NCBI GenBank assembly: GCA_023265105.1
Contig: JAHFUJ010000002.1
Coordinates: forward strand, 16,877-54,250
Length of the DNA: 37,374 bases
Origin: Acidobacteriota bacterium
GTDB taxonomy: Bacteria; Acidobacteriota; Vicinamibacteria; Vicinamibacterales; CAVVIG01
Direction: 5' to 3'
The notes under the pieces were generated by a model. That model worked only from the letters and a program-made list of their open reading frames with translations. It had not been told where the DNA came from and made no database searches. Both the position numbers and the translations under genes were made by a program. Positions 9,436-29,621 of this stretch are shown here, one piece after another. Within the stretch, counting starts at the first letter, position 1. The number at the start of each line of letters is the position of its first letter.

Positions 9436-10568
9436 AGCGTCTGATCGTTGCGGTCGCAGTCGCAAGCGTGCTTGCGCCGCTGTATGTAGTGTCCGGCTTT
9501 AGCCGGACCTTGCCGATGGCACCTTCGTACGTGGCGTCCGGCTTGAGCCGGACCTTGCCGACGGCACCTTCGTACGTGGCGTCCGGCTTCAGCCGGACCT
9601 CGGCCGGGTCGACGGAGTCGAATCAGATTCTGCCGGTGACTGCCGTCGAATCAGTCGGCATGACCGTCTCCGATATGGATCGGGCGCTCGCGTTCTACAC
9701 GGGAGTGCTGCCATTCGTAAAAATCTCGGACCAGGAGCTCTCGGGACGCCCGTACGAGCTGCTCACGGGCGTCTTTGGCGCCCGTAGCCACGTCGTCAGG
9801 CTGCGGCTCGGTTCGGAAGAGATCGAGCTGACCGAGTTTCTGGCGCCGAAAGGCCGCCCGATGCCGCCCGACCTTCGCGCGAACGACCGTCTGTTTCAGC
9901 ACATTGCCATTGTCGTGAGCGACATCACGAAGGCGTACGGCGTCCTGAGACAGCATGGAATCGAGCATGCGTCGACCGGACCTCAACGGCTTCCTGACTG
10001 GAACCCAAACGCGGGCGGCATCAGTGCGTTCTATTTCCGCGACCCCGATCGCCACTTTCTCGAGATCATCGCCTTCCCACCCGGTAAGGGCTCGCCACGC
10101 TGGCAGGAGTCGTCCACGGGGCTGTTTCTCGGCATCGATCACACCGCGATTGTCGTCGACGACACCAGCGCATCGCTGCGGTTTTACCGCGACACGCTCG
10201 GGCTAGTGGTTGCCGGCGAGAGCGAGAACTACGACGTCGAGCAGGAACATCTCAACAACGTCTTCGGCGCGCGGCTGCGAATCACCGCGCTTCGTGCGGG
10301 CAAGGGGCCGGGTATCGAGCTCCTCGAGTATCTCGCGCCTCGCGATGGTCGACCGGCCCCGAACGATCTGCTCTCGAACGACATCGCGCACTGGCAGACG
10401 ACGCTCGTTGCCGATCGGCTCGATCCGTTGCTGGGTCTCGCCCGTGACCATCGCGTCTCGCTCGTCTCACCCGGCTCGGTAGATGCCTCATCACTTTCTC
10501 TCGGTTTCCGCACGGGATCGCTCACGCGCGATCCGGACGGGCACGGCATGCGCCTCGTCGCGAGATAA
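9432..10568 (+). CDS. Secreted two-domain VOC/glyoxalase family protein containing an in-frame repeat insertion
   Basis: Signal peptide; GMTVSDMDRALAFY, QHIAIVV, FRDPDRHFLE, IDHTAIVV, IELLEY and RDPDGH. Confidence 0.85.
   Translation: MKRLIVAVAVASVLAPLYVVSGFSRTLPMAPSYVASGLSRTLPTAPSYVASGFSRTSAGSTESNQILPVTAVESVGMTVSDMDRALAFYTGVLPFVKISDQELSGRPYELLTGVFGARSHVVRLRLGSEEIELTEFLAPKGRPMPPDLRANDRLFQHIAIVVSDITKAYGVLRQHGIEHASTGPQRLPDWNPNAGGISAFYFRDPDRHFLEIIAFPPGKGSPRWQESSTGLFLGIDHTAIVVDDTSASLRFYRDTLGLVVAGESENYDVEQEHLNNVFGARLRITALRAGKGPGIELLEYLAPRDGRPAPNDLLSNDIAHWQTTLVADRLDPLLGLARDHRVSLVSPGSVDASSLSLGFRTGSLTRDPDGHGMRLVAR
9482..9600 (+). repeat. Three tandem REP-like palindromes with 45-bp period, inside the CDS
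   Basis: GTAYGTRGYGTCCGGCTTBAGCCGGACCT at 9482, 9527 and 9572, separated by TGCCGAYGGCACCTTC. The core GTCCGGCT/AGCCGGAC is a perfect inverted repeat and encodes YV(V/A)SG(F/L)SRT. Confidence 0.9.
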
Positions 10569-11330: not shown

Positions 11331-11672
11331 ATGGCAAGAGTCCAGCCTGTGCTGACCCCCACTGAACTTGCGCTGGTCGACCAAATGGCCGAGCTGACGC
11401 GGTCGAAGCGCACCGACGTGATCAAGAGCGCTCTGGGCGTCTACCATTGGTTCGTGCGGCAGGCCTTGACCGGGAGCAAAGTGGTATCCCGCAAACCCAC
11501 CGGCGAGGAAGTCGCTCTCGAGACGGCCGAACTGGCCGCTCTGGAAGGGAGGGGCAATCGCCTCGGTCCTGAAGAGCTCGGTCTGCTCGCCAAGCAACTC
11601 GCCTCCGCGTCTGACCCAATCGACGCCGCTCGTCTAAAGGAACGCCTCACGCGCGGCTTCTACGGCATCTAA
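11331..11672 (+). CDS. Ribbon-helix-helix (CopG-like) protein, putative antitoxin
   Basis: N-terminal strand then two helices (RVQPVL..ELALVDQMAEL..KRTDVIKSAL); first gene of a small bicistron. Confidence 0.6.
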   Translation: MARVQPVLTPTELALVDQMAELTRSKRTDVIKSALGVYHWFVRQALTGSKVVSRKPTGEEVALETAELAALEGRGNRLGPEELGLLAKQLASASDPIDAARLKERLTRGFYGI

Positions 11673-11686
11673 GATTAGAGCGCGTC

Positions 11687-11932
11687 GTGCCGAAGGTCCG
11701 CCGCCACGACATTCCGCCCGCGCTGTTCCAGCATCTGCTCGACCGCATCCAAAGCCGGAAGATCCCAGCAACTCAGCTGGAATTGCTGGCGAAGTGGCTC
11801 GATACCGAACCGGAAGTCCCCGAGGGTCAGTGGTTCAAACGATTCACGGGCATAACGGTTTGCGGCGAAGGAGAGTTGGTCAAGACTTTTCTCCTCCCTG
11901 GTCAGCCCGCCAAAGGCCAGAGGGTCTCATGA
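11687..11932 (+). CDS. Small basic hypothetical protein, putative toxin
   Basis: 81 aa, 14 nt after the RHH gene; HLLDR, PEGQWFKRF and CGEGELVKTFL segments. Confidence 0.55.
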   Translation: MPKVRRHDIPPALFQHLLDRIQSRKIPATQLELLAKWLDTEPEVPEGQWFKRFTGITVCGEGELVKTFLLPGQPAKGQRVS

Positions 11933-14562
11933 AGCGGGGATCGGTCGGGACGTTCCCGCAGATGGCCGCGAGCCGTGCGCATGTACTCGCGAGTTAGGCG
12001 GATGAGCGTGCGCCCGGACGTGGGCGTGATGCCCCGGCGGCGGTTCTCCGCCGCGATCTCGAACGCGATCCGCCACTGCGTCATCAGAACACGATACGCC
12101 CTCGTCAACGGTGTCCCGGGATGGTAGATGTGCGTGGCTTCCGAGGTCACGCCGTTCAACTCGATAATCTTGAACCCGCGCCCATTCCGAAATGCCTCGA
12201 TCCCTCCGTCCACTCGTACATCGAATCGTCCGAAATAGAAGCCATCGAAACCTCGCGCGATCGCGTCGAAGCGCTCTTCGAGCGCCGGTGTGAGCACCCA
12301 CGCGCCGTCGAGGAACATGGCGCCGCGGCAGTGGGTACCGAGCTCCGCGAGCGGGATCGCCTCGCCGACCGACGGCACATCCCCTAGCCTCTCGCGGTGT
12401 CGCTCACAGTAGAGCCGCGCCATGCATACCGCGCGTTCGTCCTGAAGAATCAATTCTTCCAACGTGCGTCGGCCATCGCCTACCACCGTGGGGAACCTCT
12501 TCTCGGTAATAGAAAAGACGTGACCACGTGACTCAGAGGGGTACCGGTAGTAAAAGACGCCGAACTCGGCCCCGGCGACGTACTCCTGGATGATCGTGTC
12601 GACCGACGAGTGTGCGAGACAGTCTTCAAGGGCGTTCGTTGAACGAACGACGATGACACCGGACCCACGTTGACCGTGGTTGGGTTTGAGGACGATCGGG
12701 AACGCCAGCGCTTCATCAGCCATGAAGCGTTGTGCCTCTCGAACTTTCTCGGTCTGGCTCAGACTCCCCGCAATCAGGCGCGAGCGCGCCATGTACTGGC
12801 GGGCACCGGCGAGTGCCTGAAGAATGGCGTATTTCGATTCGCCGACGAAGCCGCCTGCCTCAATCGCTGGATTGGCGGCTGTAAACAGGGTGACACTCCG
12901 ATGCTTCACCATGAGGTACACGATGTACCCGAGCAGCGGCGGATAGAACACCCAGGGCGGCCAGAATTCCCATCTCGTGCACCGTCGCCAAGACGAGACC
13001 AGCAGCCTGCGTCCCTTGGCGGTCGCCGCAAACTGGATGACCTTGAGAGCGAGCGCAACAAGCGCAATGGTGCTCACCGCACGCGCGTACGGAGACAGCA
13101 AAGCCATTGACGGGATGAACAGAACGGAACTGACGAACGCCGAAACGCCGACTGCCAAGGCTGCCCAGATGGCGTTGGCGAGCAGCAACAAAACCATGAA
13201 TCTCCACAGGCCCACGTTCAGCAAACCTGCTGCGACAGTCGCGGTACGCCGCCTGCCCAGTGCGAGCGAACTGAGGTGACGCGTCGCGACGCCGTGCTGT
13301 GAAAGGAACGCGAGGCTCCGTTCGACGGCCTCTGGCGGGAATAGCCATCGCGTCGGCGCCGCCTGGAAGACGCGCCGCCCATAACGGCGACTGCCAAGGA
13401 ATAGCAGCAGGTGGGCGATGCACATGCCAGTGAAGCAGGCGCGCACCGCCAGGGCGGGGCTCACACGTCCACGCGCAACGAGCGCGCCGGCAGCAGCACC
13501 GGTGACATTCTCGGAAACCAATGCGGCGGTCGTCAGAAGTCCACTGAACACCGCCGCGGCGATCCCCCGCACTTGCGGCAGCCGCAACGCGTCAAAGGCG
13601 GGGCTCGCTGCACGGACCCGCTCTGGATCTGCATCCGCGAGCGCCGGCGCCCGGCCCTGTTCCGCGCGATCGACGAACTCGGCAATGAGATTGCCGAGAT
13701 ACGGCGCCCTGGTGAACAGCAGGAAGTGATCTCCGTACGGTATGTGCAGCTCACTTTGAGGAATCAGGCGATGGTGCTCCTGTGCCGCCTCAATCGGCAC
13801 TTGATCGTCGTCGGTACCGTGAACAATCAGGGTCGGCACGGTCACCCGCCGAAGGATGTTGCGAAGAGGTCGTTGATCGGAATCGAAGAAGTTGCGCGCA
13901 TACGGAACATCCAACATGGCGTTGTCGAGACGGCCCATGTGCGGGGTCGCTTCGTGCAGGAGCCACAGCGCAATGAGCTGGACGCCGTGAACCGCGTGGT
14001 TGACGTAATAGTCGCCCGTCAGCTCCATCTCCTGGACGCCGATTGCCGAGAGCATCGTCAGGGACGCGACACGTTCGGGCGCCACGTCGGTCAGGTTCAG
14101 CGCAACGCCGCCTCCCATGCTGAACCCCAGCACGTGCGTCCGCCCGATGCCGAGCTGATCCAGGAGCTGCCGCACATAGACGGCGTGAGCGCGAAATGAA
14201 TAATCCGGCAGCGTGCGCGTGGAAGAACCGAAACCGGGCAGATCGGGCACGATCACCCGGGCGTGTTGCGCCAGGACAGGCGCGAGACGCCCGAAGTCGT
14301 CTTTGCGGCCCGGACTGCCGTGGAGGAGCACGATCGTTTCCTGATCCTGGCCAGAGGGCGGTGCGTACTCTCGATACGCAACGCGGATCGCCTCGGATGT
14401 GAGCCGTGTGCCGTCAACCGCCTGCGCAACGGCGACGCGATCGAATGGGCCGGCATCCGCGAGGGCCTGATGCGAGGATCGGGCGAAGAACGAGACCCCG
14501 AGCAGCAGTCCGTAGGCGCCGACGCCCAACAGTACTCGACCGCGCCGGGTTCGGGCGCTCAT
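11902..14562 (-). CDS. Alpha/beta-hydrolase - DedA/VTT - ATP-grasp fusion protein
   Basis: Hydrolase: LLHGSPG, PDLPGFG, GFSMGG, HGTDD, GDH. Central multi-TM DedA-like region. ATP-grasp: WEFWPPW, GESK, PIVLKPNHGQRGSGV, QEYV, GRFDV, IIELNGVTSE. Start taken at MSART. Confidence 0.85.
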   Translation of the reverse strand: MSARTRRGRVLLGVGAYGLLLGVSFFARSSHQALADAGPFDRVAVAQAVDGTRLTSEAIRVAYREYAPPSGQDQETIVLLHGSPGRKDDFGRLAPVLAQHARVIVPDLPGFGSSTRTLPDYSFRAHAVYVRQLLDQLGIGRTHVLGFSMGGGVALNLTDVAPERVASLTMLSAIGVQEMELTGDYYVNHAVHGVQLIALWLLHEATPHMGRLDNAMLDVPYARNFFDSDQRPLRNILRRVTVPTLIVHGTDDDQVPIEAAQEHHRLIPQSELHIPYGDHFLLFTRAPYLGNLIAEFVDRAEQGRAPALADADPERVRAASPAFDALRLPQVRGIAAAVFSGLLTTAALVSENVTGAAAGALVARGRVSPALAVRACFTGMCIAHLLLFLGSRRYGRRVFQAAPTRWLFPPEAVERSLAFLSQHGVATRHLSSLALGRRRTATVAAGLLNVGLWRFMVLLLLANAIWAALAVGVSAFVSSVLFIPSMALLSPYARAVSTIALVALALKVIQFAATAKGRRLLVSSWRRCTRWEFWPPWVFYPPLLGYIVYLMVKHRSVTLFTAANPAIEAGGFVGESKYAILQALAGARQYMARSRLIAGSLSQTEKVREAQRFMADEALAFPIVLKPNHGQRGSGVIVVRSTNALEDCLAHSSVDTIIQEYVAGAEFGVFYYRYPSESRGHVFSITEKRFPTVVGDGRRTLEELILQDERAVCMARLYCERHRERLGDVPSVGEAIPLAELGTHCRGAMFLDGAWVLTPALEERFDAIARGFDGFYFGRFDVRVDGGIEAFRNGRGFKIIELNGVTSEATHIYHPGTPLTRAYRVLMTQWRIAFEIAAENRRRGITPTSGRTLIRLTREYMRTARGHLRERPDRSPLHETLWPLAG

Positions 14563-14577
14563 AGAGGTGAACGTTCC

Positions 14578-14607
14578 TTGGATGCCGGGGCGCTCGCAAT
14601 CGTTACG
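14578..14607 (-). promoter_or_regulatory. ECF-type promoter CGTAACG-N16-CATC-CAA
   Basis: Minus-strand match just upstream of ATG 14562. Confidence 0.7.
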
Positions 14608-14619
14608 GCATGAGCATTC

Positions 14620-14648
14620 CGAAACCTCCTCAGCGCCACGGAATCCTA
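14620..14648 (+). promoter_or_regulatory. ECF-type promoter CGAAACC-N15-AATC-CTA
   Basis: Divergent partner of the 14578 site; both boxes are conserved in the duplicate at 24267 while the spacer diverges. Confidence 0.65.
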
Positions 14649-14709
14649 GGTTGCGAGCGGTACCAAGACAAGACCGGAAACAACAACCGCAGTGATTCAG
14701 GAGGACAGA

Positions 14710-15138
14710 ATGATTCGTCGCACCATCCGGGCATTTCGTACAGCACTCTTCAGCATCGCGGCGCTCACCATGACGGCGACGTTTGCGCTGGCACAGAGCC
14801 AAACCAGCAAGCCGTTCTCTGGAGCCAAAGTGAACGGCGGCACCATCACACACTCGACGAGGGACGGCCAGGACGTGCTCACGCTGTCGGACGACTTCAA
14901 GGTTCCCGACACACCAGATCCGCACTGGCAGGTGGTCGACTCAAAGGGCAACAACTACCTGCTGCAGCGTCTGGGCGTGAAGAACCTCGGCGGCCTCGCC
15001 AAGGACCGGATCAACATGTCGATCACACTGCCGGCCTACGTCAAGGACGTCGCCAAAGTGCAGATCTACTGCGCGTGGGCGGAAGCGGTCCTCGGCGAGG
15101 CGCCGTTCGGCGCCCCGTTGATGACGATGAACAAGTAG
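14710..15138 (+). CDS. Secreted DM13-like domain protein, copy 1
   Basis: RBS AGGAGG, signal peptide, LTLSDDFKVPDTPDPHW and VQIYCAWAEAVLGEA, resembling the DM13 GPDL and WC..FG motifs. Confidence 0.65.
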   Translation: MIRRTIRAFRTALFSIAALTMTATFALAQSQTSKPFSGAKVNGGTITHSTRDGQDVLTLSDDFKVPDTPDPHWQVVDSKGNNYLLQRLGVKNLGGLAKDRINMSITLPAYVKDVAKVQIYCAWAEAVLGEAPFGAPLMTMNK

Positions 15139-15806: not shown

Positions 15807-15926
15807 CGTGGGTGACTTTTGCGACCCGCCCGCACTTGACGCCAAGAAAGCTGAGGTGGCCGAAGAATTTCACCGCGCGTCCGGCCCGTACGGTATGCTT
15901 TGAGGCTCGATCCTCACGCGCGAGCA

Positions 15927-17723
15927 ATGAGCCTCATTCCGGAAACGGCGCTCCCCGATTCGTTCCCTCCCTACGAGGCGTTCCGGCAGCACTTCGGCTT
16001 CGTGCCGGCAATCTTTCGCGCCCAGAGTCTGCTTCCCCGAGTCATCGAGGCTGAAGCGCAGATGGCCGGCGCGGTCCTGCTGGCGCCTGGCGCCCTGACG
16101 CGCGTTCAGAAGGAAACCATCCTTCTGACGCTGGCATCGCGTCATGCCAACGCGTACTGCGTGACCGCTCATCGCCACTTTCTTGGCGGGCTTGGTGTTC
16201 CGCCGCACCAGCTGGATGTACTGGCGCGCGACTACCACGACGCTGGCCTCTCTTCGGCGGACGTGGCGCTCCTGGATTTCGCGCTCAAGCTGGGAAGCGA
16301 GCCGAACTTCATACACGGAGGCGAGATCGAGGCGCTGCGCGCCAACGGGTTGACCGACGAGCAGATACTGGAAGCCGTCCTGATGACGGCCTTGACGAAT
16401 TTCCTGTGCACACTCTCGGCCGGCCTCGACGTGGCGCCAGATTTCGAGTTATCGCCGATTCGTTGCTCAATCCAAAGTCCGCCGGCGACGCTCGCGTCCC
16501 CTCCGACCGTGGCGACGAAAGGTCCGTACCTGCGTGCTGTAGTTCGAGACCAGAAAGAATTTCCACCGTTCGCATTCTTCCAGGAGAAATTCGGCTTCAT
16601 TCCCAACATCTTTCGAGCCCAAACCCTGCGACCCGACGTGGTCGAGGCCGAAGCGTTCACGGTTGGAACCGTGCTGCTGACCGACGACATCCTCTCCCGC
16701 GTGCGAAAGGAATTCATTCTGCTCGTCATCTCGGCCGCGAACCTCAACACCTACTGTGTCGCGGTGCATTGCGAGATGCTGCGCAACCTCGGCATACCGG
16801 CGGACGCCTCCGACCAGATCGCCGTCGATCACCGCAGCGCCGACCTGGGACAGGCCGACAAGGCGTTGCTCGATGTCGCGCTCAAGGTGGCTCGCCGATC
16901 GCCGACCTTCGGGCAGGCGGACCTGGACGGACTCCGCACCCATGGCTTTACCGACCCCCAAATCCTCGAAGCTGTGGTCATGGCCTCCCTGACCAATTTC
17001 CTTAATACGCTGCAGGTTGGCCTGGGCACCGTCACCGATTTCCACCCGCGGCGGGTCTTTGCGACCAGCGTGAATCTTTTGGAAGACCCGGCCCATCCAA
17101 TGGATCAGGGGACCGGTGGGGCCGAGCCGGCGGGCGACCCGGACACCGAGCTGGTCGCCAGAGCGAAGAGCGGTGACAGAGGCGCGTTCGAGGCACTGGT
17201 GCGAAACCATCATCGCCGGATCTACCGGACGTTGTTGGGCGTGACCGGGAACCCGCCAGATGCGGAGGACGCGACACAGACGGCGTTTCTCAAGGCATTC
17301 CAGCATCTCGGGGACTTCGAAGGACACGCGCGCTTCGGCACCTGGCTGACACGTATCGCCATCAACGAAGGTCTCGAATGCGTGCGTACGCGAAAGCCGA
17401 CGGAGAGTCTTTCGCCCGAGGACGAAGACGGAGGGCCGTTCCGCCCGCGGCTCGTGCTGGGATGGGCGGACGACCCCGAGCGGCTGTATCAGCGCGAGGA
17501 GCTCCGGGCCATGGTGGAACGCGCGGTGACCTCTCTACCCGTCCGTTATCGGATGGCCGTGCTTCTACGCGATCTGGAACAACTGTCGACCGCGGAGGCT
17601 GCGGCAGCGCTGGGATTGGGAATCCCAACCCTCAAAACTCATTTGCTTCGGGGCCGCCTGATGCTTCGCGAAGCGCTGGCTCCCCACTTCATTCCTCGAC
17701 AAGGAGCGGTGGCTCGTGTTTAG
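15927..17723 (+). CDS. Tandem AhpD/CMD-like (peroxidase-related) domains fused to a C-terminal ECF sigma-70 factor
   Basis: Two internal repeats (FGFVPAIFRAQ..NAYCVTAH..GLTDEQILEAV and FGFIPNIFRAQ..NTYCVAVH..GFTDPQILEAV), then sigma region 2 (DAEDATQTAFLKAF, FGTWLTRIAIN) and region 4 (LPVRYR..TLKTHLLRGR). No stop codon between them. Confidence 0.9.
   Translation: MSLIPETALPDSFPPYEAFRQHFGFVPAIFRAQSLLPRVIEAEAQMAGAVLLAPGALTRVQKETILLTLASRHANAYCVTAHRHFLGGLGVPPHQLDVLARDYHDAGLSSADVALLDFALKLGSEPNFIHGGEIEALRANGLTDEQILEAVLMTALTNFLCTLSAGLDVAPDFELSPIRCSIQSPPATLASPPTVATKGPYLRAVVRDQKEFPPFAFFQEKFGFIPNIFRAQTLRPDVVEAEAFTVGTVLLTDDILSRVRKEFILLVISAANLNTYCVAVHCEMLRNLGIPADASDQIAVDHRSADLGQADKALLDVALKVARRSPTFGQADLDGLRTHGFTDPQILEAVVMASLTNFLNTLQVGLGTVTDFHPRRVFATSVNLLEDPAHPMDQGTGGAEPAGDPDTELVARAKSGDRGAFEALVRNHHRRIYRTLLGVTGNPPDAEDATQTAFLKAFQHLGDFEGHARFGTWLTRIAINEGLECVRTRKPTESLSPEDEDGGPFRPRLVLGWADDPERLYQREELRAMVERAVTSLPVRYRMAVLLRDLEQLSTAEAAAALGLGIPTLKTHLLRGRLMLREALAPHFIPRQGAVARV
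17071..17100 (+). promoter_or_regulatory. Intragenic ECF-type promoter TGAATCT-N16-CATC-CAA
   Basis: Sits in the linker immediately before the sigma domain; shares GTGAATCTTTT and spacing with the site at 18001. Confidence 0.55.
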
Positions 17724-17976
17724 CTGCGAAGATGTTCGGGCTGCGCTCAGCAACTATTTGGACGGCGACGTCTCGCCGGACCTTCGCCGCGAGCTGGAGC
17801 GTCACTTGAGCGAGTGCCGAACGTGCCAAGTGCTTTACGACACGACTCGGAAGACCCTGCATATCGTGACGAACGTGGGATCCTTCGACATCCCAGAAGC
17901 CGTGTCGGAACAGCTCGTCAAACGGATCATGAGCAGGCTCACCCTCCCACCGTCCGCCCCGCCGTCTCACTCCTAG
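17716..17976 (+). CDS. zf-HC2 (ZAS) soluble anti-sigma factor
   Basis: CEDV..YLDGD..HLSECRTC (HxxxCxxC); overlaps the sigma fusion stop; no TM segment. Confidence 0.9.
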   Translation: MFSCEDVRAALSNYLDGDVSPDLRRELERHLSECRTCQVLYDTTRKTLHIVTNVGSFDIPEAVSEQLVKRIMSRLTLPPSAPPSHS

Positions 17977-18055: not shown

Positions 18056-18688
18056 ATGCTTGAATCTAGCGGACACGACACGTTACAGACTGACCGGCCG
18101 GACGAAGCCGCGTGGGTCTGCCTGCTGCAGGCCAGGGATGATGACGCGTTCGAACGATTGGTCAGGACCTTCGGGGGTCGAATGCTGATGGTGGCGAAAC
18201 GCTACGTGAGCAACGAGGAAGATGCGAAAGATATCGTCCAGACGGCCTACCTCAGTGCGTTTCGGGCACTGGACCAATTTGAGGGTGCGGCCCAGCTCTC
18301 GACCTGGCTTCATCGGATCGTCGTCAATACGGCGCTGATGAAGCTCCGCTCAAGACGGCGAAAGCCTGAGGAGTCGATCGAAGACTTGCTACCGACATTC
18401 CAAGAGGATGGGCATCACGTCGAGCAGTTCTCGGAGTGGGGCGCGCCGGCCGATCAACTGATGGAGCGGAAGGAAACGTGCGCGACCGTCCGAGCGTGCA
18501 TCGAGCAGCTCCCGGAAAACTACCGCGCCGTGCTCATGCTGCGGGACATCGAGGAGCTCTCCACGCAAGAGGTGGCCGAGATGCTGACGATGACACCGAC
18601 GGCAGTGAAAGTTCGTCTACACCGCGCGCGCCAAGCGCTGTCCACATTGCTCCGGAAGCAGTACGCAAAGCCGAGCGTAACCTCTTAA
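18056..18688 (+). CDS. ECF RNA polymerase sigma-70 factor
   Basis: DAKDIVQTAYLSAF, LSTWLHRIVVN, LPENYRAVLMLRD and AVKVRLHRAR motifs. Confidence 0.95.
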   Translation: MLESSGHDTLQTDRPDEAAWVCLLQARDDDAFERLVRTFGGRMLMVAKRYVSNEEDAKDIVQTAYLSAFRALDQFEGAAQLSTWLHRIVVNTALMKLRSRRRKPEESIEDLLPTFQEDGHHVEQFSEWGAPADQLMERKETCATVRACIEQLPENYRAVLMLRDIEELSTQEVAEMLTMTPTAVKVRLHRARQALSTLLRKQYAKPSVTS

Positions 18689-18731
18689 CCCGGCGTGACA
18701 TGGAACCGGCAACCTCACATGCCGGGCGATC
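18648..18731 (+). repeat. 84-bp duplicated block, copy A (ECF 3' tail + decayed promoter + first codons of the acyltransferase)
   Basis: Ungapped match to 25343-25426 with 11 mismatches by hand count; the -10 box reads CATG-GAA here instead of CATC-CAA. Confidence 0.85.
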
Positions 18732-24295: not shown

Positions 24296-24355
24296 GTGGT
24301 GAGCGGTAGAACGCAGAAAAGATCGGAAACAACCGCAGTGATTTAGGAGGACAGA

Positions 24356-24784
24356 ATGAGTGGTCGCACCATCCAGACAGTTCGTACGGGGCTCTTCAGC
24401 ATCGCGGCGCTCGCCATGACGGCGACATTCGCACTCGCACAGAGCCACACCAGCAAGCCGTTCTCCGGCGCGAAAGTGAACGCCGGCACGGTCACACACT
24501 CGACCAAAGACGGCAGGGACGTGCTCACGCTGTCGGACGACTTCAAGGTGCCCGACACACCCGATCCGCACTGGCAGGTTGTGGACTCAAAGGGCAGCAC
24601 GTACCTCTTGCAGCGTCTCGGCGCGAAGAACCTCGCTGGCCTCGCCAACGACCGGATCAACATGTCGATCACGCTGCCCGCGTACATCAGGGATGTCGCC
24701 AAAGTGCAGATCTACTGCGCGTGGGCGGAAGCGATCCTCGGCGAGGCGCCCTTCAGCGCCCCGTTGATGACGATGAACAAGTAA
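24356..24784 (+). CDS. Secreted DM13-like domain protein, copy 2
   Basis: Close paralogue of 14710-15138, with the upstream leader also conserved. Confidence 0.65.
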   Translation: MSGRTIQTVRTGLFSIAALAMTATFALAQSHTSKPFSGAKVNAGTVTHSTKDGRDVLTLSDDFKVPDTPDPHWQVVDSKGSTYLLQRLGAKNLAGLANDRINMSITLPAYIRDVAKVQIYCAWAEAILGEAPFSAPLMTMNK

Positions 24785-25342: not shown

Positions 25343-25426
25343 TGCTCCGGAAGTAGTACACACCGCCGGGCGTAACCTCGTAACCCGGCGCGACATCCAA
25401 CCGGCAACACCACATGCCGGGCGATC
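25343..25426 (+). repeat. 84-bp duplicated block, copy B (relic ECF 3' tail + intact promoter + acyltransferase start)
   Basis: Matches 18648-18731; the ECF codon CAG is TAG in this copy. Confidence 0.85.
25371..25400 (+). promoter_or_regulatory. ECF-type promoter CGTAACC-N16-CATC-CAA
   Basis: Motif match 13 nt before ATG 25414. Confidence 0.72.
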
Positions 25427-27192
25427 CATTTCTGATCGACAGCCTGCCAACCACACCCCTCCGTCGCGCGGCGATTGCCGCCGCGCGGCCCCTCCTTTCG
25501 TGGTTGCTGCGGTTGCGCACCTATCGCGCGCTCTACGAGCAAACGCGGGCTGCTCCCGACGAACCGTTTGAGCGTCGCGCGCTCGAAGCACTCGACATAC
25601 GCCCGAGGCTTTTGCCTGGCGACGCAGGTGTGGTTCCGAAGCACGGTCCGCTGGTGATCGCGGCAAATCACCCCCATGGCGCGCTCGACGGGCTTCTGGT
25701 GGCCTCCATTGTCCGACGCACCAGATCGGACGTTCGAATTCTGGCGAATCACCTGCTCTCACGCATTCCCGAGCTGGCAGATTTGTGTTTCTTTGTGGAT
25801 CCCTTCGGAGGCCCAACCGCCGCCGCCCGTAGCGGGGCCGGGCTTCGCGCCGCGCATTTGTGGTTGAGAAACGGTGGAGCGCTTGTCGTGTTCCCCGCAG
25901 GTGAGGTCGCGCACGAGCCACGACCTGATGGATCGTACGCGGACTCGCCCTGGCGACCGACCATCGGTCGCCTGGTGCTCGCGACGGGCGCTCAGGTCGT
26001 CCCTGCGTTCATCGCCGGCACCAACACGAAGGTGTTCTACGCGGCCGGACGGGTACACTCCGCGCTGCGCACAGCGCTCCTCGCGCGCGAGTTGCTGAAC
26101 AAGCGCGGTCAAGCGGTCACGATGCGGCTCGGCCAGCCATTGGCGGCGCGAGATTTTGCCAATGCGGCTGGGGACGCCGCGGCGGCGACGCAAGTCATCC
26201 GCCGAGCCGTCGAGCAGCTGGGAACGGTCCGGCTGAAGCCGGACGCCACGCCTGGCCCGTACGTGGCGTCCGGCTTGAGCCGGACCAACTCGATCGCACC
26301 AGAAATCGCGCACCTGCCAAGGGAATCCTGTCTCGTCGAGAGCGGCGCGTTCCAGGTCTTCTGCGCGGAAGCATTTCAGATACCCTCCGCGCTCCGAGAG
26401 ATCGGTCGCCTGCGTGAGGTCACGTTCCGGGCCGTCGGCGAAGGCACCGGCCGCAGCCTGGATCTGGACGCCTTCGATGACCGCTATCTCCACCTCTTCG
26501 CCTGGGACGGCGAGCGGCAGCAGATTGTCGGCGCGTATCGCATCGGGCAGACCGATCGGATCATGGCGACCGAGGGCGTTGAGGGTCTCTACACGCGGAC
26601 GTTGTTCCGATACGACGAGCGCTTGATGACGCGCCTCTCACCCGCCTTGGAGCTGGGACGTTCCTTTGTCCGGGCCGAATACCAGAAGAACTACAACGCG
26701 CTGCTGCTCCTGTGGAAAGGCATCGGCCAGTTCGTCGTCCGTCACCCGGAATACCGCGTGCTCTTTGGTCCGGTCAGCATCAGCACCAGGTACTCGGACA
26801 GCTCACACCGGCTGCTGATGGCATTTCTCCAGCAGAATCACCTCGACCGTGCGCTCGCCGAGCTCGTGGAAGCGATCAATCCAAGCGCGATGGATCCGGC
26901 GCCGCCAGTCTTGACGGCGATCCCTCAGTCGATTGACGAGGCGAACCGGCTCGTGTCGAAAATGGAAGCCGACGGAAAAGGCGTACCGGTTCTGCTGCGC
27001 CAGTATCTGAAGCTGAACGCGCGCCTGCTTGGCTTCAACCTCGACCCGGATTTCGGCGATGCGCTGGACGCATTGATGATGGTCGACCTCGCAGCCGTCG
27101 ATGCGCCGATCCTGAATCGGTACTTCGGACGGCAAGAGGCCGCCAACTTCCTCGCGAGGCATCGTGGCAGGCAATCGGCACACGCCGCCTGA
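25414..27192 (+). CDS. olsF: Bifunctional PlsC-type acyltransferase + GNAT (Acetyltransf_5) N-acyltransferase, OlsF-like aminolipid synthase
   Basis: NHPHGALD (HX4D) and FPAGEV in the N-domain; EIGRLREVTF, LELGRSFV, LLWKGIG, GPVSIS and PVLLRQYL in the C-domain. Same domain order as OlsF; substrate unproven. Confidence 0.78.
   Translation: MPGDPFLIDSLPTTPLRRAAIAAARPLLSWLLRLRTYRALYEQTRAAPDEPFERRALEALDIRPRLLPGDAGVVPKHGPLVIAANHPHGALDGLLVASIVRRTRSDVRILANHLLSRIPELADLCFFVDPFGGPTAAARSGAGLRAAHLWLRNGGALVVFPAGEVAHEPRPDGSYADSPWRPTIGRLVLATGAQVVPAFIAGTNTKVFYAAGRVHSALRTALLARELLNKRGQAVTMRLGQPLAARDFANAAGDAAAATQVIRRAVEQLGTVRLKPDATPGPYVASGLSRTNSIAPEIAHLPRESCLVESGAFQVFCAEAFQIPSALREIGRLREVTFRAVGEGTGRSLDLDAFDDRYLHLFAWDGERQQIVGAYRIGQTDRIMATEGVEGLYTRTLFRYDERLMTRLSPALELGRSFVRAEYQKNYNALLLLWKGIGQFVVRHPEYRVLFGPVSISTRYSDSSHRLLMAFLQQNHLDRALAELVEAINPSAMDPAPPVLTAIPQSIDEANRLVSKMEADGKGVPVLLRQYLKLNARLLGFNLDPDFGDALDALMMVDLAAVDAPILNRYFGRQEAANFLARHRGRQSAHAA
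26226..26286. repeat. Inverted pair of the same REP-like palindrome, inside the CDS linker
   Basis: GGTCCGGCTGAAGCCGGACGCCACG followed by GTACGTGGCGTCCGGCTTGAGCCGGACC; encodes VRLKPDAT..YVASGLSRT. Confidence 0.9.
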
Positions 27193-27197
27193 GCCAG

Positions 27198-27782
27198 TCA
27201 GTCACAGACAACGCTCATCGTCGAAAGACCGCGGGGTCGCATCGCAAGATCGCGCGCGAGCCGCAAGAGCATCAAGATGCCACCAGCAACCAGTAAGCGT
27301 GGTATCCACCCGAGCCCGACGATGGGCGCAAGGCGTGAGATGAACGCGTCGCCGAGGCTGACCGTCAGGAGGATGATCGTCGGCGTCCAGAGTGTCGCCC
27401 CGAGCAGAGCCCAAAGAGCGAAGACCCTACCCGGCAGCTTCAGGAGCCCGGCAATGACGTAGAGCGGGAGCCGCGTGCCGGGGAGAAACCGGCTGCCGAC
27501 AATCGCACCCGCGGCGTGTTGTTTGAGCCAGAGCTGCATCTCTTCAAATCGTCCTCGCTGGAGCTGACGGGCGACCCAGGGCCATGCCAGAGCCGCACCT
27601 CCAAACACGCGGCCTACTCCCCACAGCCCGAAATCACCAACGAAGATGCCGACGATGCACGCGAGTATGCCCGAGGCGACGCCGAGCTGACCGCGCTGAA
27701 TCAGCAGGCCTGCGGCGATGCAGGTGAGGTCTTCGGAGAGGAGTGTGCCAAACGCAAGTGAAATGAAAATGAGCACGATCAC
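27198..27782 (-). CDS. DedA/VTT family membrane protein, possibly C-terminally truncated
   Basis: LSEDLTCIAAG, GIFVGD and SRFLPGTRLP motifs. Confidence 0.85.
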   Translation of the reverse strand: MIVLIFISLAFGTLLSEDLTCIAAGLLIQRGQLGVASGILACIVGIFVGDFGLWGVGRVFGGAALAWPWVARQLQRGRFEEMQLWLKQHAAGAIVGSRFLPGTRLPLYVIAGLLKLPGRVFALWALLGATLWTPTIILLTVSLGDAFISRLAPIVGLGWIPRLLVAGGILMLLRLARDLAMRPRGLSTMSVVCD

Positions 27783-28579
27783 GCCGCCTCGACCACGACC
27801 GGCCGGCTGCGCGCGCGGTCATATTTCGAATGATGAGCGTTTTTTGCCGGCGAAGCCGGCCTACTAGGAGCGTGTTCCCATTTCTCGGACACGCTCCCAG
27901 AACCGAGTGGTTCGTAGCAAAGTTGGATGGCGCGCGAGCTGACATCGATGACAGTTCGGCTGACAGTGAGCGCATCCGATCGTTCCATGCAGACGCTGAT
28001 TTCCGGCCTTTCCATCCATTGATGACGGTGGAAGCGGAATTGCCCGCATAGCCACCCGCTCTGGTCTGCTACCACCTGCCGCTCGAACAATCTGCGCCTG
28101 GGTTCCTCAACGAGCGCGTCACCAAGCGAGGAGGATGTAAACAACAGTGGAGCGGACATCCTCGAGATTTTGCGCGACAGCCCGTATCCGTCGCTGTTCA
28201 CCACGCCAACGGTGAAGCCGTGAACCAAGACGAGGCGGAACGGCTCGAAGGAGGTCGGATCGAGCCGCTCGGCGGCGGCGATCGCGCGGCGCAGCGATCC
28301 GTGCGCCAACACTGAGGGCACGATGCTTCCGCGGCTGCAGGCGGCTCGCTGGCGCCGCACAGCCCCGTCCATGGTTCGATTGAGGAGCGTAGCCGCGAGA
28401 CCTGCTTCGTTGACGCCAACCCACGTGCCCGCGCCAACGGGATCTACCGGAAAGATCGCCGTTCTGTCCTGCTGGCAGCGGAGCTGCGGCGGCGTTGCCG
28501 CCGGGCGGTCGCGCCGTTCGTCGCGGTTGCAGACCATCCGGAACCCCTCGTCGTGCGGAACGATGGTGACCGTGCACAT
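27779..28579 (-). CDS. NRDE/TANGO2 family protein (Ntn-hydrolase-like)
   Basis: MCT N-terminus, CNRDE, GTWVGVN, SRG, PFRL and TVSRT. Confidence 0.88.
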   Translation of the reverse strand: MCTVTIVPHDEGFRMVCNRDERRDRPAATPPQLRCQQDRTAIFPVDPVGAGTWVGVNEAGLAATLLNRTMDGAVRRQRAACSRGSIVPSVLAHGSLRRAIAAAERLDPTSFEPFRLVLVHGFTVGVVNSDGYGLSRKISRMSAPLLFTSSSLGDALVEEPRRRLFERQVVADQSGWLCGQFRFHRHQWMERPEISVCMERSDALTVSRTVIDVSSRAIQLCYEPLGSGSVSEKWEHAPSRPASPAKNAHHSKYDRARSRPVVVEAA

Positions 28580-28591
28580 GGGTACACGCGA

Positions 28592-29122
28592 TCAGTGTCT
28601 TAGCGGGGTGGACGGGGAGTGGCCGAATCGCTCCGGCACCGAATGGCCGTGGATCTCGAGGAGAACCGCAATCATCGCCTGGTGATGAATCGTGTGGCTC
28701 ACGACGAACGCCAACTCGCGAGCCAGCGTGGACCAGCCGGTCACTGCATCACCCGACCGAGAAATCATCGACGTCACACGAATCGGTTCGTCGAGCGATC
28801 GCCTCGACCAGGCGCTGAGTGCGCCTTTCAATTGCAGAATGTGACGGATCGCCTCGGCGGGATCGCTTTCCACGGCCGTTCCTCGGTGGCGGCGATCGTA
28901 GGACAGCGCCGTGGACGAATCAGCGGCCAGCAGCGCCGAGACGTGATCGAGACAATGCCTGACGTGTTCCCCGATTGTGCCCGAGACGTTCGTCGCGAGC
29001 CCGGCACAGTACACCTCTGGCGCCACTTCCATCAACAGTGAAGCAAGTTCGTCCAAGAGGCGCCACAGTGCCCAGGATGGCGACTCGGTCACGCGCGGGC
29101 GTTCTTCGATGGCTGCGATCAC
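28592..29122 (-). CDS. DinB/YfiT superfamily protein
   Basis: IGEHVRHCLDH, YDRRHR and RELAFVVSHTIHHQA. Confidence 0.85.
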   Translation of the reverse strand: MIAAIEERPRVTESPSWALWRLLDELASLLMEVAPEVYCAGLATNVSGTIGEHVRHCLDHVSALLAADSSTALSYDRRHRGTAVESDPAEAIRHILQLKGALSAWSRRSLDEPIRVTSMISRSGDAVTGWSTLARELAFVVSHTIHHQAMIAVLLEIHGHSVPERFGHSPSTPLRH

Positions 29123-29134
29123 GAAACCTCCGCC

Positions 29135-29545
29135 TCAGGCGAGTTGGAAAAATCGCCCGACAATTGGAATCTGCGACCGCCGAATGACCAGCACGATCGC
29201 ACTGCCGAGGAAGGCCGTCAGCGCGAGTCCGAACAGCAGGCCACCGTCCCCCTTCACTTCAATGCCAAGGATGGTGAGGTGGCTGACAATGGCTCCGCTC
29301 ATGACGCCCATGGTGACGATGGCCCCGAGCGGCGCGGTGGCCGGCGCCAGGAGCAGGAGCGACGCAATCAGCTCGACTACCCCAGAGCCGATGCGCCCCC
29401 AGGGCTCTGCTCCCAGCTTGCTGAAGATGTAGACCGATTCCTCGGCACCCGTGAACTTGAAAAACAGCGTTTGCAAGAGGATGCCGGCGACTGCGAGCTG
29501 CAGGATCCAGCTGACGACGGTTTGAGCTTTTGATAAGTGATTCAT
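29135..29545 (-). CDS. DoxX family membrane protein
   Basis: ILLQTLFFKFTGAEESVYIF, GRIGSGVVEL and GAIVSHL. Confidence 0.88.
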   Translation of the reverse strand: MNHLSKAQTVVSWILQLAVAGILLQTLFFKFTGAEESVYIFSKLGAEPWGRIGSGVVELIASLLLLAPATAPLGAIVTMGVMSGAIVSHLTILGIEVKGDGGLLFGLALTAFLGSAIVLVIRRSQIPIVGRFFQLA

Positions 29546-29551
29546 GTCCCC

Positions 29552-29580
29552 TTAGATGACCCGGACCTCGAGCGGTTACG
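29552..29580 (-). promoter_or_regulatory. ECF-type promoter CGTAACC-N15-CATC-TAA for the DoxX-DinB-NRDE-DedA operon
   Basis: Ends 6 nt before ATG 29545, which suggests a leaderless transcript. Confidence 0.72.
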
Positions 29581-29592
29581 GGGTGACGGCCG

Positions 29593-29621
29593 TGAAACGT
29601 CGCCCCGTTTCAGGCATCCAA
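29593..29621 (+). promoter_or_regulatory. ECF-type promoter TGAAACG-N15-CATC-CAA for the glucosidase operon
   Basis: Divergent partner of the 29552 site. Confidence 0.7.

Follow-up and report, generated by a model that had tools for sequence, protein, structure and literature searches.

Both a free alpha-carboxylate and an amine are accessible on ornithine-type aminolipids, and the genes that make ornithine lipids and other aminolipids are known; the gene for the one ATP-dependent modification of their head group and the route by which they cross the inner membrane are not. ATP-grasp enzymes convert a carboxylate to an acyl-phosphate and join it to an amine, hydroxyl or thiol, and among them LysX/ArgX, RimK, Ddl/VanA and the cyanophycin synthetases either extend a terminal carboxylate by an amino acid or form dipeptides. 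TANGO2 is a human disease protein whose function is unclear. The transfer of taurine to the carboxyl group of ornithine lipid, which yields cerilipin, is ATP-dependent, and its gene is given as unknown in the excerpted text of PMC12971839. The DedA protein YqjA of Escherichia coli has two re-entrant hairpins whose tips carry four charged residues, E39, D51, R130 and R136, and these are essential according to the excerpted text of 10.1101/2021.10.18.464800. Here we describe a gene on a 37,374-nt stretch of DNA from an Acidobacteriota bacterium (GenBank assembly GCA_023265105.1, contig JAHFUJ010000002.1, positions 16,877 to 54,250 of the forward strand; hereafter the window). This gene, at 11902..14562 on the minus strand (886 aa plus stop) and hereafter the target, encodes an alpha/beta-hydrolase, an apparently relic DedA segment and an ATP-grasp domain in one chain. 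It is a real, conserved gene for an uncharacterised membrane ligase-hydrolase tied to aminolipid genes. What appears to be new at this locus is a split variant, in which the relic DedA segment in the chain is accompanied by a putatively working DedA protein supplied in trans.

A preliminary description of the sequence had read a serine hydrolase, a DedA-like membrane domain and an ATP-grasp domain in one chain of about 886 aa, and Pfam, a hidden Markov model (HMM) of the family and fold comparison together support these three assignments. The hydrolase domain (residues ~42-301; 13660..14439, minus strand) matches Abhydrolase_1 (PF00561) at 114.3 bits and E 9.7e-33, above the Pfam cut-off of 25.8. 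We aligned 118 full-length relatives, taken from the 120 best matches with a length threshold of 780 aa that removed two shorter proteins, and found HGS at residues 81-83, Ser148 in GFSMGG (residues 146-151), Asp252 and His279 to be invariant in all 118. By the usual order of such residues in this fold, Ser148, Asp252 and His279 probably form the catalytic triad. The AlphaFold2 model of the whole chain, made from a 30-sequence alignment, has a mean pLDDT of 88.9 and a pTM of 0.66. A Foldseek search with this 886-aa model returned esterases, lipases and C-C hydrolases (E ~1e-11 to 1e-12, target TM-score 0.6-0.74). As it gave hydrolase matches only, we therefore folded and searched the C-terminal domain separately.

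The ATP-grasp ligase domain (residues ~557-865; 11968..12894, minus strand) carries K626, E666, R779, D781, E801 and N803. All 118 relatives have K626, E666, D781 and N803, and R779 and E801 are each present in 117. The residues in VLKP, QEY, FDVR and ELN are assigned their presumed roles by motif position, by analogy with Ddl. At the level of curated families the match is marginal: the Pfam RimK ATP-grasp model reaches 21.9 bits over residues 606-665 with a cut-off of 21. No NCBIfam model is specific to the target, and the best one for its C-terminal part, cyanophycin synthetase, falls far under its cut-off. Folded alone, the C-terminal 365 residues gave a mean pLDDT of 72.7 with a poorly modelled insert, a region that is modelled well in the full-length prediction. 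VIA-align placed LysX/ArgX (5k2m) first for this C-terminal model (Z 14.6, root-mean-square deviation 3.5, 219 aligned residues), followed by RimK at Z 13.3, VanA and Ddl at Z ~13 and cyanophycin synthetases at Z 10-11, and all 50 rows that it listed have the ATP-grasp fold. Foldseek returned D-Ala-D-Ala ligase (Ddl) at E 8e-8. A profile built from 12 domain sequences matched 7ta5 best (E 4.2e-6) and further CphA, GshAB, RimK and Ddl; 7ta5 is cyanophycin synthetase 2 (CphA2), and it shares a GDG..T..LI insert with the target domain.

The membrane segment between these two domains (residues ~331-515; 13018..13572, minus strand) descends from DedA and is degenerate. It scores 119 bits on an HMM of canonical fused DedA domains, and in a tree of DedA sequences the relic segments nest within the fused group on a long branch (0.99, support 100). 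Its match to VTT_dom (PF09335, residues 356-474) gives 21.3 bits, or 25.8 in the genome search, both under the cut-off of 33.9. Where the family consensus reads SEDLTCIxAG ... GDxLLxLxGR ... SRFxPGxRLPTYxAAG, the target has SENVTGAAAG ... IAHLLLFLGSR ... SSLALGRRRTATVAAG, or in short EN..H..S..R against ED..D..R..R. Three of the five family-conserved charged residues are lost, D352, D384 and R432 being replaced, and E351 and R438 are kept. By motif position, E351, R438 and the lost R432 would correspond to three of the residues essential in YqjA.

All five charged residues are kept in 78 of the 118 aligned relatives and not kept in 40, the target among them. In a FastTree phylogeny that used the columns of the hydrolase and ATP-grasp domains and left out those of DedA, one branch (local support 99) separates the 40 from all others, a pattern of one change. 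We then took pairs with an ATP-grasp identity of 0.70-0.85 and divided their DedA identity by their ATP-grasp identity. The 78 canonical proteins give a ratio of 1.02 (264 pairs, on average 0 gap columns) and the 40 degenerate ones a ratio of 0.56 (461 pairs, on average 37 gap columns); hydrolase identity is 0.71-0.74 in both groups. The DedA segment of the 40-member clade diverges about twice as much as its hydrolase and ATP-grasp domains. Many members carry deletions of 50-60 residues in the segment, and 26 of the 40 have gaps at the R432 position or broader deletions. Among the loci that we scanned with HMMs (173 and the window), an ATP-grasp match was found in 154; in these, the low scores of the target gene on the DedA HMM are 23, 37, 76, 118 and 134, and the rest lie at 154-309. 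From these comparisons of sequence, the fused DedA segment of the target is best read as a decayed relic.

A stand-alone canonical DedA of 206 aa (27198..27818, minus strand; LSEDLTCIAAG, GDFGLWGVGR, SRFLPGTRLPLY) is encoded in the same window, directly after a TANGO2 gene, the slot held by the fused gene in other genomes. It is 41% identical to a canonical fused DedA domain (E 1e-23), 29% identical to the relic segment of the target (E 6e-7) and 48% identical to the solo DedA of locus L018, a degenerate-clade relative. On the family DedA HMM it reaches 120 bits, compared to 14-40 bits for the four other DedA paralogs of this genome; its NCBIfam matches to UptA are weak. In the DedA tree, ten solo DedAs from such clusters group together (support 80) as the sister of the fused domains (support 96). 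Since the solo proteins are sister to the fused domains and the relic is nested inside them, the solo DedA is not a recent duplicate of the relic. The E-D, G-D, S-R and P-G-x-R motifs are kept in 10 of 10 solo DedAs examined.

The distribution of the solo gene follows the state of the fused segment. Of 71 loci whose fused DedA is canonical, 3 have a solo DedA of this subfamily at a distance of up to 10 kb from the ligase. Among the 11 ATP-grasp-only loci, which include three broken genes (L098, L072 and L016), 5 have one. A solo DedA is found on the contig in 4 of 4 degenerate-clade loci with enough flank (the window, L018, L158 and L168), each time in a DoxX-DinB-TANGO2-DedA operon. The operon is divergently adjacent to the ligase gene in L158 and L168, 3 kb from it in L018 and 12-13 kb from it in the window. 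Decay of the fused DedA and presence of the solo DedA are complementary in this small sample, and the separate DedA 12-13 kb away appears to do the transport job of the decayed segment. A clade in which the fused DedA decays and a solo protein of the same subfamily is kept offers comparative evidence that the pathway needs DedA activity. It is also a clean genetic design, in which ligase, solo DedA and hydrolase are removable one by one.

The fusion is widespread. Of 7999 scored candidates, 1694 match the target, and nearly all of the 120 best cover 92-99% of the query with lengths of 800-930 aa; among clusters formed at 50% identity, 1436 reach E<=1e-30. In one-genome-per-species contigs, at least 576 of 599 pattern matches encode a relative. 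Within the phylum, 38 of 301 sampled genomes have a match: 20 cover the three domains, 12 start at ~316-346 (DedA and ATP-grasp) and 6 start at ~513-529, these last containing only the ATP-grasp domain and the hydrophobic segment before it. The best 80 matches are labelled mostly as Acidobacteriota (48), followed by Gemmatimonadota (5) and Thermodesulfobacteriota (4), with one record each from Calditrichota, Planctomycetota, Rhodothermota, Kiritimatiellota, Bacteroidota and Spirochaetota. Ten more of the 80 are labelled 'Bacillota' or 'Actinomycetota' on metagenome-assembled genomes (MAGs) from co-assemblies, and we doubt these labels. The MAGs of L018, L024, L026, L028, L029, L032, L034, L043, L045 and L046 are titled Heliomicrobium, Heliobacteriaceae or Bifidobacterium; genes in them are ~50% identical to Blastocatellia genes, and the organism labels look unreliable.

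We also considered an assembly artefact and rejected it, given the relatives in so many species genomes and contigs from four groundwater DNA runs of one study, which span the gene with no indel or joint (two of these runs may be the source of the assembly). Among the runs listed for this stretch, none was of RNA. The two doubts that the preliminary description had raised about its own reading, a degenerate ATP-grasp site and a fusion absent from other genomes, both fall away, because the site is intact and the fusion occurs in many genomes.

To describe the gene context of the relatives, we clustered the open reading frames (ORFs) of 91 loci (L005-L095) and named the clusters by Pfam on two representatives each. 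The recurrent neighbours were DinB_2 (43 of 91 loci), an OlsB-like GNAT of the Acetyltransf_5 family (42), an OlsA-like acyltransferase of the PlsC type (30), DoxX_2 (27), TANGO2 (21 + 8), a family without a name (15), a GH63-like hydrolase (11) and a GMC oxidoreductase (9). The usual order is OlsB > OlsA > DinB > TANGO2 > target. We then counted the cluster HMM matches in the 86 ATP-grasp-positive loci that had 3 kb or more of upstream sequence. Some of the counted loci had themselves contributed to the HMMs; the metagenome loci L096-L173 were new to them. Canonical three-domain loci (n=51) contained OlsB in 33, OlsA in 28, DinB in 34, TANGO2 in 22 and DoxX in 14. The corresponding counts were 16, 11, 17, 14 and 13 for two-domain loci with DedA and ATP-grasp (n=20) and 7, 2, 8, 7 and 7 for ATP-grasp-only loci (n=11).

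TANGO2 homologs in the phylum sample (PF05742) fall into two score classes, of ~160-250 and ~28-50 bits; the low-score class travels with the ATP-grasp gene, and the high-score class is common in families without it. Of 21 genomes with a low-scoring, divergent TANGO2, 17 are ATP-grasp-positive, a descriptive count, as related genomes are not independent. In at least 12 of the divergent-TANGO2 genomes, the TANGO2 and ATP-grasp genes are on the same contig within ~2 kb of each other. Taken together, the gene context in relatives points to amino-acid lipids as the likely substrate. The preliminary description had guessed at an aminoacylated lipid or peptide, and the OlsB/OlsA or OlsF genes beside the relatives lend support to the lipid. 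The family thus ties an ATP-grasp ligase, a DedA transporter, a TANGO2 homolog and aminolipid synthases together in at least 576 species genomes.

The hydrolase domain is less constant. It is absent from 55 of the 154 loci with an ATP-grasp match, about a third of the sampled family. We looked for a separate hydrolase copy near the hydrolase-less forms and found none; the only nearby matches were frameshift pieces, on which ground we rejected the idea that another gene supplies these forms with a hydrolase. The domain is accessory in this family and, as about a third of the members lack it, hydrolysis is not a core step.

In the window, the gene set of the relatives lies at 25.4-32.4 kb and includes the operon DoxX-DinB-TANGO2-DedA (27.2-29.6 kb). 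The first gene of this operon is a DoxX_2 membrane protein (open frame from stop to stop, 29135..29551, minus strand), followed by a protein matching the DinB_2 fold profile (open frame 28592..29134, minus strand) and a divergent TANGO2 homolog (open frame 27779..28591, minus strand), which starts MCTVTIV and keeps the N-terminal Cys. An OlsF-like bifunctional aminolipid synthase (25384..27192, plus strand; probable ATG near 25415) combines Acyltransf_2 and Acetyltransf_5. It scores 394 bits on the NCBIfam OlsF model, under the cut-off of 620, with positions 27-569 of 570 aligned. A GH63-like gene is also in the cluster, and a GMC oxidoreductase lies at ~7.9-9.4 kb. As the target is outside this cluster, its link to the module here therefore rests on its homologs, a shared motif and the solo DedA.

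The shared motif is a bipartite, promoter-like sequence, GTTTC-N13-CGTAAC, at 14602..14625 (minus strand), 40-63 nt upstream of the target ATG. A second exact copy at 29575..29598 (minus strand) lies 24-47 nt upstream of the DoxX open frame. Two exact copies in the 37-kb window compare to 0.04 expected, and 0 of 100 shuffles reach two. Over the 173 loci, the only other exact match besides the window copy (L001) is upstream of the DoxX operon of L018, with a spacer of 15 nt. When two mismatches are allowed, the window holds 10 matches with 6.35 expected, an uninformative difference. The upstream stretch of 26 nt occurs only once in the window, and a sigma-70 and terminator scan of 11600-15000 gave nothing over the shuffled expectation. 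The shared motif, a putative promoter of the extracytoplasmic function (ECF) type or an operator, suggests that the target and the DoxX operon may be co-regulated. The preliminary description had placed the gene under an "island promoter" without defining it; this motif is probably what was meant.

Other repeats occur in the window. An 84-nt direct repeat (18648-18731 and 25343-25426, 87% identical) contains CGTAAC-like boxes in both copies; the copy at 25343-25426 spans the probable start and 5′ region of the OlsF-like gene, and the copy at 18648-18731 overlaps the 3′ end of an ECF sigma factor gene. GC hairpin repeats resembling repetitive extragenic palindromes (GTCCGGCTT.AGCCGGAC) occur in frame inside two genes. 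A gene for a glyoxalase-fold protein has three tandem 45-nt copies in its N-terminal part (9482-9616), and the OlsF-like gene has two in the linker between its two domains (26218-26303).

The start of the target gene is well defined. The ORF list gives an open frame of 11902..14925 on the minus strand, and the ATG at 14562 yields the 886-aa chain. Homolog N-termini line up with this Met in the alignment, and an AAGGAA lies 12 nt 5′ of the ATG. GC content at third codon positions (GC3) is 0.73-0.74 in each third, or domain part, of the gene and 0.545 in the 363 nt from 14563 to 14925. We rejected a 1007-aa version starting at GTG 14925 because of this low GC3 upstream of 14562. The gene is monocistronic, and no neighbour in the window shares an operon with it. 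At its 3′ end it meets two small convergent ORFs of the plus strand (11331-11672 and 11687-11932); at its 5′ end lies a divergent gene for a small exported protein (14692-15138, plus strand). The latter has a paralog at 24347-24784 (plus strand), ~600 nt upstream of the OlsF-like gene; the two proteins are 86% identical, with a weak DM13-like match (E 0.055), and the corresponding DNA repeat (14682-14981 and 24328-24627) is 88% identical. Farther along, 15900-17723 (plus strand) encodes a 607-aa fusion of carboxymuconolactone-decarboxylase-family (CMD) sequence with an ECF sigma factor. By eye the CMD part has two CMD-like halves; Pfam gives one best stretch. A zf-HC2 anti-sigma gene (17716-17976, plus strand) follows directly, and a second ECF sigma gene lies at 18056-18688.

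We next considered how the chain may sit in the membrane. An N-terminal helix (residues 3-30; 14473..14556, minus strand) follows the Arg-rich tail MSARTRRGR, which holds four Arg, and may act as a signal-anchor with the orientation that this charge would predict. Averaged over the 78 canonical relatives, hydrophobic helices lie at ~333-349, 373-390, 455-482 and 495-510, and Lys/Arg-rich stretches at 390-445 and 515-533. Directly before the ATP-grasp domain, a Lys/Arg-rich helix leads into a proline-kinked, aromatic hydrophobic segment, WEFWPPWVFYPPLLGYIVYLMV (residues ~516-556; 12895..13017, minus strand), which is conserved even among the ATP-grasp-only relatives. Its residues 531-553 are uniformly hydrophobic and proline-kinked, have positive charges on both sides and show a low hydrophobic moment, a pattern more in keeping with a re-entrant anchor than with a helix that spans the membrane. 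Of nine two-domain relatives examined, three have a positive tail and an extra N-terminal helix before the DedA domain, one has a lipobox-like signal, one a hydrophobic N-terminal helix and four short acidic or neutral tails, consistent with a DedA domain that starts at the outer face. Charge, hydropathy and the N-termini of the relatives suggest a hydrolase outside and an ATP-grasp domain inside.

Based on these data, we hypothesize that the target is a polytopic inner-membrane enzyme, the ligase part of a module that accompanies aminolipid synthases and would comprise OlsB/OlsA or OlsF, a DinB-fold protein, a TANGO2 homolog, a DedA protein, the ATP-grasp ligase and often DoxX. The proline-kinked hydrophobic hairpin would hold the ATP-grasp domain at the cytoplasmic face, where it would activate a carboxylate as acyl-phosphate and join it to an amine, with the head group of an ornithine-type acyloxyacyl aminolipid as the presumed site. 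The best candidate for the carboxylate is the free alpha-carboxylate of the lipid, which would be extended by an amino acid or amine, comparable to taurine transfer in cerilipin. The product would cross the membrane with the help of a DedA protein, which in this lineage is encoded by the separate gene at 27198-27818. The in-chain DedA segment may then do no more than link the domains through the membrane and so place the N-terminal serine hydrolase at the outer face; there the hydrolase would probably de-acylate or trim lipid. Head-group amidation is favoured because of the chemistry of the related ligases, the free alpha-carboxylate of the lipid and the ATP-dependent cerilipin step. To this combination, an aminolipid ligase that amidates an ornithine-type head group with DedA in trans and an outer lipase, we give a roughly even chance.

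Several observations weigh against this proposal. The ATP-grasp fold does not indicate which partner gives the carboxylate. There is no OlsB-like gene within 10 kb in 18 of the 51 canonical loci, and a Pfam-detectable TANGO2 is found in only 23 of the 38 ATP-grasp-positive genomes of the phylum sample. In the window itself, the target is monocistronic and 12-13 kb outside the cluster. The relic segment keeps E351 and R438 and scores 119 bits on the family HMM, so residual function is possible. Finally, the proposal implies a DedA segment that starts outside the membrane, the reverse of E. coli YqjA, for which a cytoplasmic N-terminus is reported (excerpted text of 10.1101/2021.10.18.464800).

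One alternative is a substrate other than an aminolipid, with the acyltransferases as mere frequent neighbours in an envelope-stress island; candidates are the head group of phosphatidylethanolamine (PE) or phosphatidylglycerol, an intermediate linked to undecaprenyl-phosphate, or a membrane- or periplasm-bound protein or peptide whose C-terminus would be modified in the manner of RimK/LysX. LysX/ArgX and RimK, the best fold matches, modify protein C-termini; ECF sigma, DoxX, GMC oxidoreductase and GH63 genes recur nearby; and the canonical loci lacking OlsB would be explained. DedA proteins are also tied to transport of undecaprenyl-phosphate and PE, as in the weak UptA matches and in PetA (excerpted text of PMC13691511). 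However, OlsB-like and OlsA-like genes are the commonest enzyme neighbours, lie directly upstream in the same orientation and are associated with all four architectures, and we regard a non-aminolipid substrate as fairly unlikely. Unlikelier still, in our view, is that the ATP-grasp domain makes the lipid, activating a free (3-hydroxy) fatty acid as acyl-phosphate and N-acylating an amino acid, and so feeding or by-passing OlsB, on the model of the acyl-histidine ATP-grasp of Legionella pneumophila. A membrane-embedded hairpin beside the active site would suit a fatty-acid substrate, and ATP-grasp enzymes can, according to a review (PMC11631085), form N-acyl amino acids via acyl-phosphate, but the excerpted text of that review gives the use of 3-hydroxy fatty acids by these enzymes as untested. 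Moreover, the closest structures are amino-acid and peptide carboxylate ligases, and a complete OlsB/OlsA or OlsF pair, which nearly always adjoins the module, already does this job.

The preliminary description had proposed that one chain ligates, flips the product through its own DedA domain and hydrolyses or transfers it on the far side. Such a machine is plausible where the DedA domain is canonical, in 78 of the 118 relatives, in which the three domains evolve at equal rates, and the two charged residues and HMM score retained by the relic would be in its favour. For this protein it fares poorly: D352, D384 and R432 are replaced, the segment is about twice as diverged, 26 of the 40 clade members are gapped at R432 or more broadly, and a canonical solo DedA stands in the operon, as in every locus of the clade where the flank allows it to be seen. 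The third of the family that lacks a hydrolase, with no separate copy nearby, counts against it as well, and we hold it improbable. The observation of the preliminary description is confirmed, then, and its interpretation is partly supported. That the target is a functionless remnant, displaced from the operon and heading for loss, would accord with its monocistronic position away from the cluster and with the state of the gene in L016, the closest genome relative (75% identity, on a long-read MAG contig). There the gene is in pieces at L016:6133-8483: the hydrolase is split into two fragments, the ATP-grasp domain has an ORF to itself, and hardly any DedA segment lies between; the breaks may be real decay or indel errors. 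But the frame of the target is intact with coding-type GC3 throughout, its hydrolase and ATP-grasp domains are 70-80% identical across a clade of at least 40 members with all catalytic residues kept, and sequencing errors may account for L016. We consider loss of function very improbable.

Beyond head-group amidation with DedA in trans, a bolder version is possible, though we hold it only tentatively. The family would be the missing ATP-dependent ornithine-lipid head-group ligase, the type of enzyme that yields cerilipin-like amidated lipids, making a lipid class so far undescribed in Acidobacteria and many other phyla; DedA would be an obligatory, dedicated aminolipid translocator; and the decayed DedA would be a pseudo-transporter scaffold that may dock the solo DedA. 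In the literature that we searched, no description of a fusion of DedA, ATP-grasp and hydrolase was found, and ornithine lipid with ATP-grasp gave a review naming ATP-grasp in general terms only. Searches linking TANGO2 or DinB with ornithine lipid, or bacterial TANGO2 with ATP-grasp, returned nothing; DedA and ornithine lipid have separate mentions in a review.

Compared to the DedA family (YqjA/YghB, UptA, PetA), the target segment descends from a canonical DedA domain, and its helix pattern resembles the YqjA model of transmembrane helices and re-entrant hairpins, as excerpted; unlike the family, it is under the Pfam cut-off and has lost three of the five charged residues. The ATP-grasp domain shares its fold with LysX/ArgX, RimK, D-Ala-D-Ala/D-Lac ligases, the G domain of cyanophycin synthetase and GshAB (Z 14.6-10.2), and keeps the conserved Lys and the Asp/Glu/Asn metal site of these ligases. 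Unlike them, it reaches no curated family cut-off except the marginal RimK one, has only ~70 residues before the ATP-binding Lys, preceded by the membrane-embedded hairpin, and is membrane-bound. Cerilipin formation in Gluconobacter/Gluconacetobacter cerinus, as far as its published excerpt goes, is an ATP-dependent amidation of the ornithine-lipid carboxyl and thus the chemistry expected of an ATP-grasp ligase; the target family adjoins ornithine-lipid synthase genes, and any likeness to the cerilipin enzyme would be one of chemistry and context. In Vibrio cholerae, vca0646-0649 is an operon of an OlsF gene and uncharacterised genes, which we liken to the module by description, not sequence: the excerpted Vibrio papers describe VCA0646 as OlsF2, made at low salinity, and give no domain or function for VCA0647-0649, and our search on VCA0650/VCA0651 found nothing describing the module.

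The hydrolase part matches in layout PlaF (Pseudomonas aeruginosa, 6i8w), an inner-membrane-anchored phospholipase A with an N-terminal transmembrane helix followed by an alpha/beta-hydrolase. PlaF is among both the sequence matches (E 7.7e-12) and the fold matches (Foldseek rank 14) of the target hydrolase, although it is only 23% identical, is one of hundreds of like esterase and hydrolase matches and has no DedA or ATP-grasp part. For the whole protein, the logic is like that of MprF, an aminoacyl-phosphatidylglycerol synthase that is fused to a flippase, uses aminoacyl-tRNA and has partner periplasmic hydrolases. Both would combine a cytoplasmic head-group-modifying enzyme, a lipid-translocating membrane domain and an outer-face hydrolase, and the resemblance is in logic only, as no MprF-type Pfam family is among the 21 matches of the target at E<=1. 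Unlike MprF, the target works with an ATP-grasp domain, and its translocator would be of the DedA type, encoded separately in this clade.

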